Assembly (NCBI GenBank): GCA_021108335.1
Contig: JAIORC010000146.1
Span: 1-52,593 of the forward strand
Direction of reading: 5' to 3'
From: Phycisphaerae bacterium
Lineage (GTDB): Bacteria; Planctomycetota; Phycisphaerae; SM23-33
Length of the DNA: 52,593 nt
Position numbers and translations under genes: made by a program
The notes under the pieces: model-generated
The model's database searches: none
What the model saw: the letters and a program-made list of their open reading frames with translations, nothing else
Told to the model about the DNA's origin: nothing
In this document: positions 23,498 through 35,611 of the stretch, piece by piece
How the letters are laid out: every line of letters starts with the position of its first letter
Numbering within the stretch: position 1 is the first letter of the stretch

Positions 23498-26188
23498 TCA
23501 ACCCAGTTGCTGCCTGGCGAATTCCTCGGCGGCTTTGAGTGCTTCCGGCAGTTTTTCGGGCTGTTTCCCGCCCGCCTGGGCGAGACTGGGCTTGCCGCCA
23601 CCACCGCCACCGACAATCGGGGCTGTCGCTTTTACCCAGTCGCCTGCATGAAACTTGCCCGCACCGGACAATTCGTCGCTAACCATCGCCACCAGCATGA
23701 CTTTCGAATCGTCGGCGGCTCCCAGCAGAATCGCCACTGCGCCTTTTTGGCGCTGCTGGTCGCAGATATTCCGCATAATACCGGCATCGGCGACGCCTGC
23801 CCGGGCGACAAGCACCTTGCCGGCTGGCGTCTCCAGCGTAACCGCATCGGCGATATCCGACGCGCCGCCGGCGGGGCGTTTTTTCAACTTTTTGATTTCC
23901 GCCTGCATCGCACCAACCCGCTCGGGGATGTCTGACGGGGATATCTTCAACGCCGTCGCTGCCGTCTTGAGAGTCGCGTCGGCATGGGTTATCCAGTCCG
24001 CCACGTGAGCACCGGTAATAGCGGTAATCCGCCGGATACCCTTGGCGACCGATTCCTCGGAGATAATCTTGAATAGCCCGATCTGCGAAGTCAGAGCGAC
24101 GTGAGTCCCGCCGCAGAATTCCACTGCGCAATCCTCCTGGCAGTCTCCTATTGTTACAACGCGAACCGGATCGGGGTATTTTTCGCCGAAAATTGCCCGG
24201 ACGCCGGATATGTTTTTCGCTTTGCTTAGCGGCATAACCCGTGGGGTTATGGGTGTGTCTTCCAGGATAAATTGATTAACCCGCCGCTCGACCTCCGCAA
24301 GCTCCTGGGGCGTAACGGCGGTGTTACAGGTAAAATCAAACCGCAGCCGGCTTGCATCGACCACGCTGCCGGCCTGGTTGACACCATCGCCCAGAACGTC
24401 CCGCAATGCCCAGTTCAACAGGTGCGTAGCGGTATGATTCCGCATTATATCCATCCGGGAAGGGCTTACTTCCGCCCGGACGGTCTGCCCGACCCGCAAC
24501 GTACCTTTTAGCAGCCGGCCAAAATGCAGCACGCATTGCCCGGCCAATTGAGTGGTTTCAACACGAAACTCGACCCCTTTTCCATTGTTGCCAATCAGCC
24601 AGCCTTCATCGCCGATCTGCCCGCCGGATTCGCCGTACAAACAGGTCATGTCCAGCACCACCGCTGCCTCGGAACCCTCCGTCAACTCGCCCTCGTCGAT
24701 GAATCCGCCATCCACGACCCAGCCAAGCACAATCCCGTCGGCAAACCACAGGTCAAATTTCGCCGAGTCGTCCGTTTTGGGCAGGCCCACAATCGCCTCG
24801 GCCTTGAACTTTCGGCCGCCCCCGCTGGCGGCGCGGTGCTCTTCCATCAATTCGATGTGCGAATCCTCGTCAACAGCCAGACCGACTTTCTCAGCCATCA
24901 GCTTGGTCAGACTGAAGGGGAACCCGTACGTCGCATGCAACTGGAAGGAAATCTCACCGGTAATTTGATTGTCGCCGACAGCCTTGATCCGCTCCGCCTG
25001 GCGGTTGAACAAGTCCAACCCGCGGCTGAGCGTTTTGCCGAACGCGTCCTCTTCGTTCCGAATGATATCGATAATGTCATATTTGCGGCTGGCCAACTCA
25101 TCAAAGGTGCCGCGGAACATATCGACGATGGTCGGCACGAACTTGTACAGGAATGTATCTTCGATGCCGAGGTGTTGCCTGCCAAAGCCGGCTGCCCTGC
25201 GGAGAATGGCCCGCAACACACTGCCCCTGCCGTCGTTGCTCGGCAGAATGCCGTCGGCAATAGCGAAGGTCAACGCCCGGGCATGATCCGCGATAACGCG
25301 CATGGCTACGTCACCGAGATTCGACTCGTCCATTACGTCGAAACGGTCGAAGCCCTCAGGCATATCGTCCCGCCAGCCGTACTTGTGAGGCGTCATCGTT
25401 TCGATGTGCTCGATAATCGGTATGAACAGGTCGGTGGCGTAGTTGGATTTTTTGCCCTGAATCACAGCCGTTATGCGCTCGAAACCCATACCGGTATCCA
25501 CGTGCCTCGCAGGCAGGGGCGTAAGCACACCCGTTTTATCCCGGTTGAACTGAATAAACACCAGGTTCCAGATTTCGATAACACTGGGATGCCCCGCGTT
25601 TACCAACGGCCCGCCGGATTTGTCTTCCGTCAGGTCATAATGAACCTCGCTGCACGGGCCGCATGGGCCAGTCTCGCCCATTTCCCAGAAATTGTCCTTC
25701 TCGTTACCGGGCAAAACACGATTGGCCGGCAGATACTGCAACCACAGCTCGCGGGCCTCGATGTCCGCAGCCAGGCCGTCTTTGGGGCAACCCTCAAAAT
25801 ACGTCGCGTAAAGACGCTCTTCATCCAACCCCCACACATCGGTCAACAACGTCCAGGCCCAATCGATGGCGTCCCGCTTGAAATAGTCGCCGAAACTCCA
25901 ATTGCCGAGCATCTCGAAAAACGTGTGGTGATAACAATCCCGGCCGACGTCTTCGAGGTCATTGTGCTTGCCGCCGGCACGAATGCATTTCTGCGTATTG
26001 ACTGCCCGGGTGTAATCCCGCGTCTCCGTACCCAGAAAAATAGGCTTGAACTGATTCATGCCCGCGTTGGTAAACAACAGCGTCGGATCGTCAGCCGGCA
26101 AAAGCGAACTGCCCGGAACAGCTCTGTGCCCGCGATCCTCAAAGAATTTTATGAACTCACTCCGAATGTCCCTGCCGCTCTTACTCAT
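23498..26188 (-). CDS. alaS: Alanine--tRNA ligase
   Basis: DPTLLFTNAGMNQFK, HHTFFEMLGNWSFGDYFK, EIWNLVFIQF, editing motifs NHTATHLL and EFCGGTH, GGGGGKPSLAQAGG; start 26188 after GGAGG. Confidence 0.97.
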   Translation of the reverse strand: MSKSGRDIRSEFIKFFEDRGHRAVPGSSLLPADDPTLLFTNAGMNQFKPIFLGTETRDYTRAVNTQKCIRAGGKHNDLEDVGRDCYHHTFFEMLGNWSFGDYFKRDAIDWAWTLLTDVWGLDEERLYATYFEGCPKDGLAADIEARELWLQYLPANRVLPGNEKDNFWEMGETGPCGPCSEVHYDLTEDKSGGPLVNAGHPSVIEIWNLVFIQFNRDKTGVLTPLPARHVDTGMGFERITAVIQGKKSNYATDLFIPIIEHIETMTPHKYGWRDDMPEGFDRFDVMDESNLGDVAMRVIADHARALTFAIADGILPSNDGRGSVLRAILRRAAGFGRQHLGIEDTFLYKFVPTIVDMFRGTFDELASRKYDIIDIIRNEEDAFGKTLSRGLDLFNRQAERIKAVGDNQITGEISFQLHATYGFPFSLTKLMAEKVGLAVDEDSHIELMEEHRAASGGGRKFKAEAIVGLPKTDDSAKFDLWFADGIVLGWVVDGGFIDEGELTEGSEAAVVLDMTCLYGESGGQIGDEGWLIGNNGKGVEFRVETTQLAGQCVLHFGRLLKGTLRVGQTVRAEVSPSRMDIMRNHTATHLLNWALRDVLGDGVNQAGSVVDASRLRFDFTCNTAVTPQELAEVERRVNQFILEDTPITPRVMPLSKAKNISGVRAIFGEKYPDPVRVVTIGDCQEDCAVEFCGGTHVALTSQIGLFKIISEESVAKGIRRITAITGAHVADWITHADATLKTAATALKISPSDIPERVGAMQAEIKKLKKRPAGGASDIADAVTLETPAGKVLVARAGVADAGIMRNICDQQRQKGAVAILLGAADDSKVMLVAMVSDELSGAGKFHAGDWVKATAPIVGGGGGGKPSLAQAGGKQPEKLPEALKAAEEFARQQLG

Positions 26189-26388
26189 AACCCTTCCCTC
26201 CATAACATAACAAATTAAACCAATTAACAGAATTGTAACGCCATTGGGCCGAAACGGCAAGCATACTATCACCACAACGCAACTGTGTTTGGGAAGATTT
26301 CCCAACCCCGCCACCAAACTGCCGGCGGGTGGCGGAATCAGCCCCTGAAAGGGGATGGCCATGAGGAAAAATGGCCCAGAAAAAAGTC

Positions 26389-26540
26389 GGGTGGCCCCTT
26401 GGGGGATGAGTGGCGCATAAATTGCAAATGTATTCGATCATGGCTACCCCGCAAAAAACGCGATTTTTCCATGTCACCCTGGATTTTTTCGTTTATGCAA
26501 AGAAAAGACCTGGGTGGCATGGCCCCTTGGGGCCGTGTAG
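26389..26540. repeat. REP-like family E copies (GGGTGGCCCCTTGGGGGATG and a degenerate variant)
   Basis: 26389-26408 matches the reverse complements at 34716-34735 and 39455-39474; variant GGGTGGCATGGCCCCTTGGGGCCGTG near 26512. Confidence 0.7.
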
Positions 26541-26590
26541 TTTTTGCGCCCCCACGTGGCGGGAGCGTCAGCAACAGCTACGATGCTACT

Positions 26591-27193
26591 TTATCCCAAT
26601 TTCTTCAGAATTTCGTCGATGGCGTCGTACTCGGTCTGCATTTCCGCCAGTTGTTTCCGGTATCGCTGGACGACGTCGGGCGGATTGTCAGTCTGGAATT
26701 CTTCCTTGGCGAGTACCGCGGTCAGCGCGTTGATCTGGTCGGCAAGGGCGTTTTGTCGTTGCCGGAGCAGTTCCAGTCGGTCGGCCCGGCTGGTCGGTTC
26801 GCTGATTGCCCCGGCGAAGACGTGCTCGGCTACGAAAATCGGCGTGTGCTCGGCTATTCCCAGGGCAATCGCGTCGGACGGCCTGGCGTCGACCTTGATG
26901 AGTTTCGTCCCGCTGCGGATGTGGAGCATGGCGAAAAATGTATGCTCCTTCAGGTCGTTGATCACGACTTTTTCCAGCTTGCCGCCCATCGCCGCGATAA
27001 CCCCAGCCAGCAGATCGTGCGTCATCGGACGCGGAACCTGAATTCCCTTCAGGCGGCGGTCGATAGCCAGGGCCTCGGTTATGCCGATGATGATGGGGAA
27101 TGTCCGTTCGCCGTTGATTTCCTTGAGGAAAATCACCTGCTGCTCGCCCAACTCGGTAATCAGAATTCGCGATAACTCAACGGGTACATCCAC
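26591..27193 (-). CDS. Bifunctional nuclease (DUF151/DNase-RNase family) with a C-terminal ValRS-like coiled-coil arm
   Basis: RTFPIIIGITEALAI, PRPMTHDLL, VDARPSDAIALG (DUF151); final 66 aa align without gaps to the ValRS C-terminal arm; GTG start after AGGAAGG. Confidence 0.9.
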   Translation of the reverse strand: MDVPVELSRILITELGEQQVIFLKEINGERTFPIIIGITEALAIDRRLKGIQVPRPMTHDLLAGVIAAMGGKLEKVVINDLKEHTFFAMLHIRSGTKLIKVDARPSDAIALGIAEHTPIFVAEHVFAGAISEPTSRADRLELLRQRQNALADQINALTAVLAKEEFQTDNPPDVVQRYRKQLAEMQTEYDAIDEILKKLG

Positions 27194-27220
27194 AATAACA
27201 CCTTCCTGCCCTATCATCGC

Positions 27221-27360
27221 GTGGTGGCCTTCCCAGGCCCACCCACGGCACAGGTTACAAACCTGTGCCACCTATCTTTCCCCCCAGGGGCCACTCGACA
27301 TTTTTTTCTGGTTTCTGTTTTTCCCAGTTCCTGGTTCCCGTTTTTCCCGGTTCCCGCTTT
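27221..27360. repeat. REP mosaic (C + A + partial E) plus heptamer tract
   Basis: GTGGTGGCCTTCCCAGGCC (27221), family A reverse (27247-27272), TTTTCCC/GGTTCCC-type tract 27301-27360. Confidence 0.8.
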
Positions 27361-27361
27361 A

Positions 27362-30274
27362 CTATAACGCTTCGAGCGATTTATTGACAGCATCGAGATT
27401 GCGTTGCATTTCTTCGAGGCGTTTTTGTTCCTGCCCAACGACATTGGCTGGGGCGTTGGCGAGGAATTTTTCGTTGCCGAGTTTGCCTTCCACGCCTTTG
27501 ACTCCCTTGACGAGGACAGCCTGCTGTTTTTCCAGCCGGGCGCGTTCGGCAGCCTTGTCGACAACCCCAAGCACATAAACTTTAATCGCTCCGACAACCA
27601 GTGCAGCCGCGTTGGCCGGTGGGATAACTTCCTCATACGAAACGCTGCACTGGCCCAGATTTGTCAGCGATTTGAGAATATCGAGATTCGCGGTAACAAT
27701 CTCCGTCTCGTGCAGGCCTTCGATAGCCTCTATCAACACATCCACTTTCTGCTTCGGAGGAATATTGTTCTGCTTTCGCACGTTGCGGATATGCCGGACG
27801 ATATTTTGCAGCGTCGCGAATGTCGCCTCGGCCGGCGGGTTGATAGTTTCGCCGTCAGCCAGCGGCCATTGCGCGAGGATCAACTGTTCCTCAGCCTGGG
27901 TGTCGCCGGGGCCTCGCCGGGGGACAGCCTTGTTGAGCTGCGCCCAGATTGCCTCGGTAATAAACGGCATAACCGGGTGCAGCAGGCGGAGCGTAACGTC
28001 GAGGCAGTGTGCGAGGATAGCCTTGGGCGCCCGCTCGCCGCCGGCGATGCGTATCTTGGCGATTTCCAGGTACCAGTCACACAGATCGTCCCAGAGGAAA
28101 TGGTAGAATTTCTCGGCCAGGTCGTTGAAACGGTATGATTCGATAGCCGCCGTCGCGTCGCGGACGGTGGCGTTGAGGCGGCTGAGTATCCACGCGTCGG
28201 CGATGTTGTCGCAGGGGCGGATAGCACCCCACGCGGGCGTCCGCAGCAGATTGCCCAGCACAAATCGGCTGGCGTTCCACAGCTTGTTGCACAGGTTTCT
28301 GCCGATGTCGAATTTCGGCGACGAATTCACCTCCCGCCCGTCGGGCAGCGTCATTTTCGCCAGCGGCATGCGGACGTCCTGCGTCTGCGTGGTCATGCTC
28401 ACAAGCGTATATCGCATCGCGTCGGCGCCGTGGGTGTCTATGACCTCCAGCGGGTCAACGCCATTACCGAGGCTTTTGCTCATCTTCCGCCCCTGACCGT
28501 CCTGGATCATCGCGTGGATGAACACCTCGCGAAAGGGAATGTCGCCCACGCAGTACTGGCCCATCATGACCATACGGCTGACCCACAGCGTGATAATCTC
28601 GCGGGCGGTGGACAGCACGTCGCCGGGGTAGAATTTTTTCATCTCCGGCGTCTCGTCCGGCCAGCCCAGCGTACTGAACGGCCAGAGAGCACTGCTGAAC
28701 CACGTATCCAGCACGTCGGGGTCGCGCTGATAGCCGTCGGCTTCGAGTTGCTGTTGGATGTCATCGTTGCCGGGGGCGACACAAACATAAGTAATCGGCC
28801 CGTCGTCGGAATCCATTACCGTCGATTGCACCTTCTCGACTTCTGTCGCCAGCTTGCCGTCCTGCTCCCCGCCGGATTTCGACCAGATGGGAATCTGATG
28901 TCCCCACCACAGTTGTCGGCTGATTGGCCAATCGCGGAGATTTTCCAGCCAGGTCTGGTATGTTTGGGCGTAGCGTTCCGGGGTGAATTTCAGCCGCTCG
29001 TCCAGCAGCGGCGTCAACGCCAGGCCGGCCAATGAATTTACCGGTACGTCCGTGCCGTCGATGAGTCCTTCGTCGGACCGGGCCGGAATCTGCTTTTTCA
29101 CTGCGACGTACCACTGGTCGGACAGGTACGGCTCGATCGGCACATGGCTGCGATAACTGTGCCCGACGGGGTGCGTATAATCTCGCACGTCTTCCAGCAG
29201 TTTCTCGTTCTTGAACCATTCAACAATAGCGGCACGGGCCTCGAAGCGATCCAGGCCGACGAGGTTCTGCGCTTCGGGGGTGTTGCAATCCTCCCAGCCG
29301 TGCGCCTCGGAAATGGTGCCGTCCGGGGCCATGATGTTTATCATGGGCAGGTCGTGTCGCTGGCCAATCTGGTAGTCGTCCGGGTCGTGGGCAGGGGTAA
29401 CCTTCAAAAAGCCGGTGGAAAATTTCGCCTTGTCGTCGTCGGATTCCGGATCAGCCGGCACCACGTGTTCGTCGGCAATGATAGCAATCTTCCGCCCGAC
29501 AATCGGCAGCCGCACCATTTTGCCGACGAGCGCCCCGGCCCGCGGGTCGCGCGGATTCATCGCCACGGCGGTATCGCCCAACATGGTCTCCGGGCGGGTG
29601 GTAGCCACGGTTACATGATCTATAATCTTGCCGTCACACTCCACCGGCTCGACCAGCGGATATTTGAGATACCAGAAATGCCCGTGAACGTCCTGATGTT
29701 CCACTTCGTCGTCGGCGAGGACGGTCTGCGTGGCTGGGTCCCAGTTCACCAGGCGTTTGCCACGATAAATCAGCCCGTCGGCGAACAGTTGAAAGAACGT
29801 CGCGCGGACGGCTTTGGCGCAGGTTTCGTCCATGGTGAACCGCTGACGCCGCCAGTCGCAACTGCAACCCATCTTCTTGAGCTGATCGGTAATGCGGATT
29901 TCGTACTGGTCTTTCCATTCCTGGATTCGCTCGACGAACTCGGCCCGGGGGAAGTCGGTGCGGCGTTTGCCTTCTTCGGCGAGGATGCGTTTTTCCACGA
30001 CGGTTTGCGTGGCGATACCGGCATGGTCGCAGCCGGGCATCCAGAGCGTGGCGTATTGGCACATCCGCCGGTAGCGGATCAGCACGTCCTGGAGCGTATT
30101 GTTCAGCGCATGGCCGAGGTGGAGGGCAGCCGTAACGTTGGGCGGCGGAATCACCATGCAAAACGCAGCCCGCTCGTCGGCAGGTTCCGCGTTGAACGCC
30201 CCGGAGGCCGTCCACGCTTCATATACGTCGGCTTCCACCTGCCGCGGGTTATACACTGTCGCCAATTCCGTCAT
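27362..30274 (-). CDS. valS: Valine--tRNA ligase
   Basis: PPPNVTAALHLGHA, DHAGIATQ, VATTRPETMLGD, DWPISRQLWWGH, DVLDTWFSSALWPF, KMSKSLGN, C-terminal KLGNEKFLANAPANVV arm. Confidence 0.98.
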   Translation of the reverse strand: MTELATVYNPRQVEADVYEAWTASGAFNAEPADERAAFCMVIPPPNVTAALHLGHALNNTLQDVLIRYRRMCQYATLWMPGCDHAGIATQTVVEKRILAEEGKRRTDFPRAEFVERIQEWKDQYEIRITDQLKKMGCSCDWRRQRFTMDETCAKAVRATFFQLFADGLIYRGKRLVNWDPATQTVLADDEVEHQDVHGHFWYLKYPLVEPVECDGKIIDHVTVATTRPETMLGDTAVAMNPRDPRAGALVGKMVRLPIVGRKIAIIADEHVVPADPESDDDKAKFSTGFLKVTPAHDPDDYQIGQRHDLPMINIMAPDGTISEAHGWEDCNTPEAQNLVGLDRFEARAAIVEWFKNEKLLEDVRDYTHPVGHSYRSHVPIEPYLSDQWYVAVKKQIPARSDEGLIDGTDVPVNSLAGLALTPLLDERLKFTPERYAQTYQTWLENLRDWPISRQLWWGHQIPIWSKSGGEQDGKLATEVEKVQSTVMDSDDGPITYVCVAPGNDDIQQQLEADGYQRDPDVLDTWFSSALWPFSTLGWPDETPEMKKFYPGDVLSTAREIITLWVSRMVMMGQYCVGDIPFREVFIHAMIQDGQGRKMSKSLGNGVDPLEVIDTHGADAMRYTLVSMTTQTQDVRMPLAKMTLPDGREVNSSPKFDIGRNLCNKLWNASRFVLGNLLRTPAWGAIRPCDNIADAWILSRLNATVRDATAAIESYRFNDLAEKFYHFLWDDLCDWYLEIAKIRIAGGERAPKAILAHCLDVTLRLLHPVMPFITEAIWAQLNKAVPRRGPGDTQAEEQLILAQWPLADGETINPPAEATFATLQNIVRHIRNVRKQNNIPPKQKVDVLIEAIEGLHETEIVTANLDILKSLTNLGQCSVSYEEVIPPANAAALVVGAIKVYVLGVVDKAAERARLEKQQAVLVKGVKGVEGKLGNEKFLANAPANVVGQEQKRLEEMQRNLDAVNKSLEAL

Positions 30275-32047: not shown

Positions 32048-32640
32048 CGGGGAAAAGCGGGAACCGGGAAAAACAACAACCGGAAAAACGGGAACTGGGA
32101 ACCGGGGAGAAACAAAAACAGGGAAAAACGACAACGAAAAGCAGGAACCAGGAACCGGGAGCAAATACATTTCAGCGCGGCGGCCTTCCCAGGCCGCCGC
32201 AACACCGGCGCCGGTGGGCTGAAAACCTGAAAATGGAAAATTGTAAATTGGGTGGCATGGCTTGCTTGCAAGCCATGTGTTTTTCGTGGGAGATTCCAGA
32301 CATCGTGGCTGTCGCTTCGCTCCCGCCACGGCACCCCTCAATGTAAATCGCGCGACGACGACACCGGTGGGCACAGGCTTGCCCCAAAGGAGTTTGTAAC
32401 CCCCTTGGGGCAAGCCTGTATCGTGGTGGCCTGGGAAGACCACCACGCGTAGGGTGGGTGCTTGCACCCACGCAGTGGGCCGAGAACCGGGCATGGAAAA
32501 TGGAACATTGCAAATTGGGTGGTACGGTTCCTGTTGTTTTGTTTCCCCGTTCCAGCGTGGGTGCAAGCACCCACCCTACAGTTTTCCCGTTTTTCCCGGT
32601 TCCTGGTTCCCTGTTTTCCCTGTTTTCCCCGGTTCCCGTT
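32048..32640. repeat. Large composite REP mosaic bracketed by oppositely oriented heptamer tracts
   Basis: GGGAACC/GGAAAAA tract 32048-32160; C-variant 32177-32200; D 32250-32277; hybrid A 32370-32419; C 32423-32446; inverted B pair 32449-32473 and 32555-32579; TTTTCCC/GGTTCCC tract 32581-32640. Confidence 0.85.
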
Positions 32641-35460: not shown

Positions 35461-35611
35461 TGTAAAAACAGGAACCAGGAAAAACAAAAACTGGGTGGCA
35501 CGACCTCTGGGGAGCTGTGTATTTTTCGGTTTCCGCGTGGGTGCAAGCACCCACCCTACAATCGTGGGTGTCGCTGCGAACCCTCCGGCCTCAAGCCTCC
35601 GGCCTCCAGCC
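35461..35611. repeat. Heptamer tract, degenerate REP, family B copy and GCCTCCG-type heptamers
   Basis: AAAAACAGGAACCAGGAAAAAC; B copy 35535-35559; CCTCCGG-CCTCAAG-CCTCCGG-CCTCCAG just after the topA stop. Confidence 0.7.

Follow-up and report, generated by a model that had tools for sequence, protein, structure and literature searches.

How does a protein of the BFN (DUF151) family come to end in a hairpin that resembles the C-terminal coiled-coil arm of valyl-tRNA synthetase (ValRS), and what might such a hairpin do there? The question is raised by a locus on contig JAIORC010000146.1 of assembly GCA_021108335.1, from a Phycisphaerae bacterium (Planctomycetota; SM23-33), which we analyzed over a stretch of 52,593 nucleotides (nt), referred to here as the window. 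In the window, a gene for a BFN protein lies directly downstream of valS, and a preliminary description suggested that the last 66 amino acids (aa) of this protein, here called the tail, are an old copy of the ValRS arm. BFN/DUF151 is an old and widespread domain that is present in bacteria, archaea, and plants and whose biochemical role is unsettled. Domains derived from aminoacyl-tRNA synthetases (aaRSs) exist outside synthetases, as free-standing editing domains and as tRNA-binding modules. Here, we present evidence that the tail most probably shares its ancestry with the ValRS arm, that it was gained once, within Phycisphaerae, and that its surface has since changed in a way that could fit protein docking.

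Homology of the tail and the ValRS arm

The last 66 aa of the BFN protein align with the last 65 aa of the ValRS encoded upstream without gaps and with 19/65 identities, and both segments end within one residue of the C-terminus. We reproduced this alignment, from which the preliminary description had started; 0/100,000 composition-preserving shuffles reached 19 identities when the best of 7 offsets was taken for each (maximum, 18). BLASTP of the BFN protein against ValRS, run as a single comparison, gave 18/57 identities, also without gaps (E=1e-9). Taken alone, the tail matches the Pfam family Val_tRNA-synt_C (PF10458) with E=1.1e-5 and 26.0 bits at a cut-off of 25.9; inside the whole protein, it scores 22.1-22.3 bits, which is under this cut-off. 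The ValRS arm itself scores 54.8 bits when scanned by itself and 48.2 bits as part of the synthetase. In a six-frame scan of the genome with PF10458, the ValRS arm ranked first with 54 bits and the tail second with 24.5 bits, followed by a third match at 13.8 bits. The sole match in NCBIfam was to the C-terminus of the ValRS equivalog model. ABC_tran_CTD (PF16326) matched the window tail with E=0.018 and 15.7 bits, under its cut-off of 32, and the ESM Atlas gave no usable match.

The relationship extends to the relatives of the protein. Among 120 homologs, 105 match PF10458 at E≤0.01 (best, 1.1e-11) and 14 match ABC_tran_CTD at the same threshold; by hand count, 76/120 already carry PF10458 beside the BFN family PF02577 in the precomputed Pfam annotation, and the pairing of the BFN domain with the arm is, thus, already visible in the automatic annotation of many metagenomic proteins. 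Using hhalign, we compared the tails of 20 BFN proteins from the Phycisphaerae family to which the window genome belongs (in the following, the own family) with 19 ValRS C-termini and obtained a probability of 97.9-98.1% (E=4e-13) over 62 columns without gaps, compared with 2.6% for a control set of the 6 UVR domains of the window genome. An HMM (hidden Markov model) of the ValRS arm scored 13.0-49.4 bits on 20/20 tails, and the maximum was 9.8 bits for 1000 shuffled tails and 8.1 bits for 20 reversed tails; therefore, neither composition nor heptad periodicity is the cause of the match. UVR as the identity of the tail was ruled out: neither the protein nor the tail matched UVR (PF02151) in Pfam at E≤10, UVR is absent among the 25 families listed of the 30 that match the 120 homologs, and the tail is not among the 6 places at which a genome scan detected UVR. 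Altogether, the expectation that the tail is closer to Val_tRNA-synt_C than to UVR or a generic coil was borne out.

In the reciprocal direction, a profile of the 20 tails gave 164 matches at E≤1e-3 among 1.84 billion proteins, and 125 of the best 150 of these 164 carry PF10458 at E≤1e-5. Ranks 1 to ~15 are BFN-tail proteins or fragments of them, and from rank 16 onward, nearly all are ValRS C-termini, often accompanied by Anticodon_1. The other 25 of the best 150 comprise six BFN proteins with a sub-threshold tail, six proteins without a family (five of which are tail fragments), one ValRS without a match to the arm, one PDDEXK fragment, one crAss-like protein, and 10 long coiled-coil or repeat proteins. 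Separately, we noticed six short proteins (P0181, P0182, P0230, P0266, P0169, and P0126) that carry a ValRS-type arm C-terminal to part of a domain unrelated to ValRS (HD_4, Response_reg, GTP_cyclohydroI, Se-cys_synth_N, adh_short, or ABC2_membrane); P0126, P0181, P0182, and P0230, whose contigs measure about 700-1000 bp, are probably chimeras produced by assembly or gene calling.

We modeled the tail by itself with AlphaFold2 because a Foldseek search with the full-length model matched only the DUF151 protein TM0160 and gave no match for the tail. In the resulting model (predicted local distance difference test [pLDDT] score, 97.6), helices are predicted at residues 2-28, 30-35, and 38-65. 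The top match in the PDB by Foldseek is the Thermus thermophilus ValRS arm (1gax_A; query-normalized template modeling score [TMq], 0.86; root mean square deviation [rmsd], 1.0 Å), and VIA-align also ranked this segment first (1gax_A 797-862; Z 10.5; rmsd 1.0 Å; 66/66 residues), in line with the superposition on the ValRS arm that had been anticipated.

Some of these comparisons weigh against common ancestry. The Pfam score of the window tail lies at the cut-off and is nearly tied with that of Snapin_Pallidin (2.1e-5, 25.3 bits, under the cut-off of 29.6 for that family); the Z value for 1gax is just 1.0 above those of unrelated hairpins, and values of ~10 are common for helical hairpins; and a search of PDB sequences with the tail profile returned no ValRS at E≤10, the best matches being designed coiled-coil hairpins and a MerR protein. 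Together with the roughly 11 long generic coiled coils among the best 150 library matches, these findings are what would be seen if the tail were a generic antiparallel coiled coil with an ancestry separate from that of the ValRS arm. Such a chance or convergent likeness is difficult to reconcile with the gap in HMM scores between real and shuffled or reversed tails, the gapless, end-to-end hhalign alignment, the predominance of PF10458 among the reciprocal matches, and the rank of the tail as the second-best PF10458 match of the genome. It is also difficult to reconcile with the placement of the two domains at the extreme C-terminus, which is seen in the window pair and holds, give or take a few residues, for all 39 tails and arms in the alignment. 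We consider convergence extremely improbable and, from the sequence comparisons and the predicted structure, conclude that the tail is almost certainly a true homolog of the ValRS C-terminal arm. Because the conserved tip signature of the arm with its basic residues is lost (see below), we classify the tail as a diverged derivative of Val_tRNA-synt_C and not as its functional equivalent.

The BFN domain

The BFN domain of the window protein matches Pfam BFN_dom (PF02577) with 117.6-118 bits at a cut-off of 27, and 120/120 homologs match this family. In the full-length AlphaFold2 model, which was built with the 120 homologs (pLDDT 83.1; predicted template modeling score [pTM], 0.60), the BFN domain is followed by a long helical hairpin with helices at residues 144-170, 172-177, and 180-207 (pLDDT 87-92). 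Foldseek aligned the BFN part with TM0160 (1vjl_A; also 1sj5) over 128 columns with 34% identity (E=7.7e-13; target-normalized template modeling score [TMt], 0.81; rmsd 2.2 Å). Residues T66, H67, and D115 are invariant in 120/120 homologs and, allowing for the 12-residue tag of the crystallized chain, align with T57, H58, and D115 of TM0160. Thr57/His58/Asp115 in TM0160 numbering constitute the proposed active site as given in PMC7249048, and the putative active-site Thr, His, and Asp are intact in the window protein.

According to PMC7249048, TM0160 and Cor/Rv1829 dimerize via the DUF151 domain, some other BFN proteins have a C-terminal UVR that is described as a protein-protein (or protein-DNA) interaction domain, and plant BFN proteins (BBDs) act as RNases and DNases in vitro. 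In PMC8889267, a CLPC1 trap enriched DUF151-UVR proteins of plants. For Mycobacterium tuberculosis Cor, a pure DUF151 protein, PMC3870250 reports no DNase or RNase activity. The biochemical activity of the family is disputed, and nuclease activity of bacterial BFN proteins is doubtful.

Distribution of the fusion

In the own family, a BFN gene is present in 19/24 other genomes. All of them (19/19) and the window genome match the query to residue 206-208, and 20/20 of these genes encode the tail. The named relatives are from Phycisphaerae metagenome-assembled genomes (MAGs). Among other Phycisphaerae families, 14/16 genomes have a BFN gene, and 14/14 matches stop at residue 134-154. In an even sample of the phylum (400 genomes and the window genome), BFN was matched in 384/401, and 149/149 matches outside the own genome among the matches listed end at model position 127-163 of 200; there were 386 further matches. 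Reading through 50 BFN open reading frames (ORFs) from outside the family, we found that 49 encode proteins of 131-180 aa without a hairpin, which stop shortly behind the BFN domain or finish with a brief acidic stretch; in the 50th (L036), there is an internal TGA, and the match ends at residue 136. The tail was, thus, not found outside one Phycisphaerae family, either in these 50 genes or among the matches listed for the phylum sample. In a tree of tails and ValRS arms, the tails form a single clade with a Shimodaira-Hasegawa-like approximate likelihood ratio test (SH-aLRT) support of 97. The tail, therefore, has a single origin, which lies in the ancestor of this family or close to it.

Short, low-complexity C-termini rich in D and E are present in 8/36 tail-less BFN proteins of Planctomycetota (L047, L048, L049, L061, L062, L064, L071, and L078). 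Acidic extensions of this kind at the C-terminus may recur in the BFN family.

Adjacency to valS and origin of the tail

valS lies directly upstream of the BFN gene and on the same strand at 14/20 own-family loci, at 11/30 tail-less loci of other Phycisphaerae families (5/14 and 6/16), and at 3/20 tail-less loci of other classes, giving 28/70 loci overall and 14/50 among the tail-less loci. Among the neighbors, valS alone is conserved; alaS was found beside the BFN gene at 1/20 own-family loci within flanks of up to ~1.5 kb. Accordingly, the proposed combination of fusion and synteny is partly retained in the survey of Planctomycetota: the fusion occurs in one family only, the valS side of the setting between valS and alaS is conserved, and the alaS side is not. 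Because other lineages have valS immediately before a tail-less BFN gene, the adjacency predates the fusion, which makes a local duplication plausible. The two genes may also be neighbors because they are functionally linked. The tail-less loci with valS upstream are L055, L056, L061, L066, L067, L075, L076, L079, L080, L032, L035, L036, L039, and L042; in one tail-less family, the gap between the two genes, measured from tblastn ends, is 0-30 nt at five of its six loci and 117 nt at the remaining one.

We infer that the fusion arose by a tandem duplication. If the duplicated segment began in the part of valS that encodes the arm and ended at the 3' end of BFN, a single event would place a copy of the arm in frame behind the BFN domain, and the second BFN copy would then have been lost. 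No duplication intermediate was seen among the loci examined. If correct, the locus would clearly illustrate how, in nature, the 3' end of one gene can supply the next gene downstream with a new C-terminal domain, with the tail-less, still-adjacent state of valS and BFN persisting in sister lineages.

The tree and the profile scores point in opposite directions with respect to the donor. The tree was built from 20 tails, 19 ValRS arms from the same loci, and 94 library arms, the latter picked for their likeness to the tails, over 66 columns. Against a donor in the own family, it sets 10 library ValRS arms of other lineages, and not the own-family arms, beside the tails; the five of these 10 that are long enough for comparison are just 30-45% identical to own-family ValRS in their C-terminal parts. 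The two tail-adjacent arms with organism names are from ValRS of Phycisphaerae MAGs. By contrast, an HMM of the tails scored 35.0-49.7 bits on the own-family ValRS arms (mean, 40.4; n=13) and a mean of 30.6 bits on arms from other Phycisphaerae families (n=6); library arms from the 1.84 billion proteins reached ≤46.0 bits among the matches listed, which places the own-family arms level with the best of them. The tree alone does not identify the donor. From the two lines of comparison, we consider it rather likely that the donor was a Phycisphaerae-type valS, and, with moderate confidence, we suggest the neighboring valS as the most likely source. Of the old duplication of the valS 3' end that had been proposed, the duplication is plausible given the single origin, the restriction to one family, and the older adjacency; the neighbor as donor is at odds with the place of the tails in the tree.

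We also considered an approximately unbiased (AU) test of a topology in which tails and own-family arms form an exclusive clade (p=0.027). We did not use this result; the constraint is unnatural because library arms, probably of the same family, are scattered among the own-family arms.

Two ValRS sequences deserve separate mention. At locus L014 (genome G009), the valS match stops at residue 946/970 and the frame runs on without an arm; valS may be frameshifted or misassembled at its 3' end here, and the adjoining gene for the BFN protein with its tail is intact. P0271, a ValRS of 1363 aa in the cluster of P0176, shares this cluster with a ValRS fragment named as coming from a Phycisphaerae MAG. 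The catalytic domain of P0271 contains a large insertion, and residues 486-544 weakly match the IS200-like family Y1_Tnp in Pfam.

Surface residues and charge of the tail

Tails and arms have in common a hydrophobic core and an L-x-[ND]-E-x-F turn. ValRS arms conserve K27, N30, K38, R46, R48, and R50 around the hairpin tip. In the tails, K27, K38, R46, and R50 are not conserved, R48 is kept, and position 30 is D; that is, 4/5 basic tip positions are lost. The tip signature of the arms, K-L-x-N-E-x-F-x2-K-A-P-x2-V-V-x-R-E-R-x-R-L, is absent from the tails, whose consensus keeps L, E, F, and R48. The F-x4-P-x2-VV turn, to which the preliminary description drew attention in the window pair, is found in orthologs in part: F is present in 16/20 tails, and some orthologs have a near-canonical F-L-A-x-A-P-x2-V-V turn, but P is present in only 7/20. 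On average, the tails carry a net charge of -3.55 and the ValRS arms one of +0.95. For the window pair, the net charge is -2 for the tail and +2 for the ValRS arm, and K-L-x-N is replaced, as had been observed for this more acidic copy. The tails have conserved motifs of their own at the base of the hairpin, L-L-R-x-R at its start and E-M-x2-E-Y-E-A-I-E and K-L-G at its end. Conservation at the base combined with loss at the tip is typical of a domain whose function has changed.

Possible functions of the tail

We suggest that the tail is a protein-protein docking or oligomerization hairpin on a dimeric BFN core, a proposal to which we give an even chance. According to this model, the copy would have kept the hairpin core, lost most of the conserved basic residues of the tip, turned acidic, and gained a conserved surface of its own at the hairpin base. 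The tail would no longer bind the tRNA elbow and would instead do the job of the C-terminal UVR hairpin in other BFN proteins. We favor docking or oligomerization, which had been mentioned earlier as protein binding or dimerization, over tRNA binding because the basic tip residues are lost and the tail is acidic. The dimerization of TM0160 and Rv1829 via DUF151, the C-terminal UVR of other BFN proteins, the enrichment of plant DUF151-UVR proteins on CLPC1, and the acidic C-termini of 8/36 tail-less BFN proteins also speak for it. Two points count against this proposal: the docking role is without a known partner, and some residual nucleic-acid binding may persist, since R48 and, in some orthologs, the near-canonical turn are kept.

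In an alternative scenario, which was the leading idea of the preliminary description, the copy of the arm would dock on the tRNA elbow (the D and T loops) and bring the BFN domain to tRNA-Val, or to tRNAs generally, for cleavage, quality control, or translational shut-off. The descent of the tail from a tRNA-binding arm, its predicted superposition on the arm in the ValRS-tRNA(Val) complex 1gax, the retained R48, and the A-P-x2-V-V turn after F in several orthologs are consistent with this scenario, as are the adjacency of valS and BFN in 28/70 loci across the phylum, which hints at a link to translation, and the in vitro RNase and DNase activity of plant BFN proteins. It is difficult to reconcile with the loss of 4/5 basic tip positions and of the N of K-L-x-N (N30 replaced by D), the shift in mean charge, the weakly conserved turn motif, and the report on Cor. 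The tRNA-directed enzyme, thus, loses weight, and we consider it unlikely. In its broader form, BFN proteins would act on tRNA or on the ValRS-tRNA complex, and the adjacency of the two genes would reflect this link, which arm capture hard-wired in one family; this seems quite unlikely to us. If true, the capture would have created a BFN enzyme that is guided by tRNA or by ValRS and that monitors tRNA(Val) or shuts off translation.

Two further scenarios leave tRNA aside. The tail could pair with its parent, the arm of ValRS, or with a different region of this enzyme, and tether a BFN dimer to the synthetase. The pairing of the UVR of UvrB with UvrC, as covered in PMC8889267 and PMC7249048, is a precedent for contacts between homologous hairpins; the genes are adjacent and co-directional in 14/20 family members, and the charges are complementary, the tail being acidic and the ValRS arm slightly basic. 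However, 6/20 family members keep the tail without valS in the upstream flank examined (up to ~1.5 kb), and the residues conserved specifically in the tails lie at the hairpin base and not along its full length. We regard an association with ValRS as improbable. Similarly, the hairpin could be an acidic, auto-regulatory appendage that mimics nucleic acid and either shields the conserved cleft of the BFN dimer or vies for it, with its origin in ValRS being incidental. The short D/E runs that end 8/36 tail-less Planctomycetota BFN proteins and the drift of the captured arm toward negative charge could be read in this way; however, a 66-aa hairpin predicted with a pLDDT of 97.6 and with conserved non-acidic positions is more than a charged tail, and an auto-regulatory appendage seems to us equally improbable. 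We, therefore, retain the docking or oligomerization hairpin as the favored proposal. Whichever function applies, the fusion and the older adjacency of valS and BFN provide a concrete lead for BFN toward translation or tRNA, and the tail, whose function we infer from its residues, presents a clean evolutionary case of domain capture.

Comparison with known proteins

The tail and the ValRS arm (PF10458, 1gax) are both antiparallel two-helix hairpins of ~65 aa at the extreme C-terminus, and they align without gaps; the tail differs in that it is attached to a BFN domain and not to a synthetase, is acidic, and has its own motifs at the base. Fukai et al. (2000/2003) reportedly described what the ValRS arm does at the elbow of tRNA. 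The C-terminal coiled coil of Uup/ABC-F proteins (ABC_tran_CTD, 2lw1) is a hairpin of the same kind (Foldseek rank 5, TMq 0.83), but its Pfam score on the tail is far below that of the ValRS family and under its own cut-off (15.7 versus 32 bits); ABC_tran_CTD and the ValRS arm presumably belong to one Pfam clan. As in other aaRS-derived stand-alone domains, a piece of an aaRS has been reused in another protein.

Among BFN proteins, TM0160 and Cor/Rv1829 consist of the DUF151 domain alone, while the window protein adds a ValRS-type arm. According to PMC7249048, plant BBD1/BBD2 have an N-terminal HCR and a C-terminal UVR besides the BFN domain, in the place of the latter of which the window protein has the arm; none of TM0160, Cor, and BBD1/BBD2 is reported with a ValRS-type arm. 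The BFN proteins with UVR (plant UVR2-4/BBD and some bacterial proteins in the same source) resemble the window protein in having a short helical hairpin C-terminal to the BFN domain. However, the hairpins differ in origin, and that of the window protein is about twice as long. In the literature on DUF151/BFN, PF10458, and the ValRS coiled coil, with supplements such as Table S1 of PMC7249048 outside the scope of the search, we found no paper on an architecture of BFN domain and arm; neither did we find any reuse of the ValRS coiled-coil arm outside synthetases, in a BFN protein or otherwise. As far as these searches show, the window protein and its relatives are the first case of such a reuse.

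Locus layout and gene starts

On the minus strand, valS is followed by the BFN ORF (26591-27271) and then by alaS (Table 1).

Table 1. Coordinates in the window of the BFN gene, its domains, and the surrounding features
Feature	Positions	Strand	Basis
BFN/DUF151 gene with ValRS-arm-like tail, 208 aa, stop included	26591..27217	minus	ORF list
BFN (DUF151) domain, residues 29-137	26807..27133	minus	Pfam BFN_dom, Foldseek
C-terminal 66-aa antiparallel helical hairpin, residues 143-208	26594..26791	minus	Pfam, BLASTP, hhalign, AlphaFold2, PDB match
ValRS C-terminal coiled-coil arm, last 65 aa (paralogous segment)	27365..27559	minus	Pfam Val_tRNA-synt_C
valS, 970 aa, directly upstream of the BFN gene	27362..30274	minus	Pfam tRNA-synt_1, Anticodon_1, Val_tRNA-synt_C
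alaS ORF as listed, 954 aa	23498..26362	minus	ORF list
10-bp perfect inverted repeat (stem-loop), 30 nt upstream of the BFN ATG	27247..27269	minus	Pattern scan and reading of the sequence

The BFN gene probably starts at the ATG at 27217. We favor this start because a 208-aa protein identical to the product is present in the database (P0001) and because homologs align from residues 2-11; the longer ORF from a GTG at 27271 is probably not used. The 10-bp stem-loop is situated in the 144-nt spacer between valS and BFN, inside this alternative, GTG-started ORF. After it, we noticed by eye a second, GC-rich, imperfect inverted repeat (the two spanning 27221-27269 on the minus strand). A search of Rfam with positions 26000-27450 gave a single match, to a long noncoding RNA at chance level (E=0.19), and none at the stem-loops of the spacer. 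PADLOC gave no match.

A purine-rich motif, GGGAAAAACNGGAAC, occurs in 9 copies with ≤2 mismatches in the window, compared with 0.63 expected. Copies are grouped in intergenic stretches at 27311-27348, in the spacer between valS and BFN, and at 32050-32135, 32583-32620, and 35461-35475. Finally, the alaS ORF as listed has ~58 extra N-terminal residues, spanning 26188-26362, before the usual start of AlaRS (M-S-K-S-G-R...). Judged from this N-terminus, the true start of alaS is probably near 26188, which would leave ~400 nt between the BFN gene and alaS.

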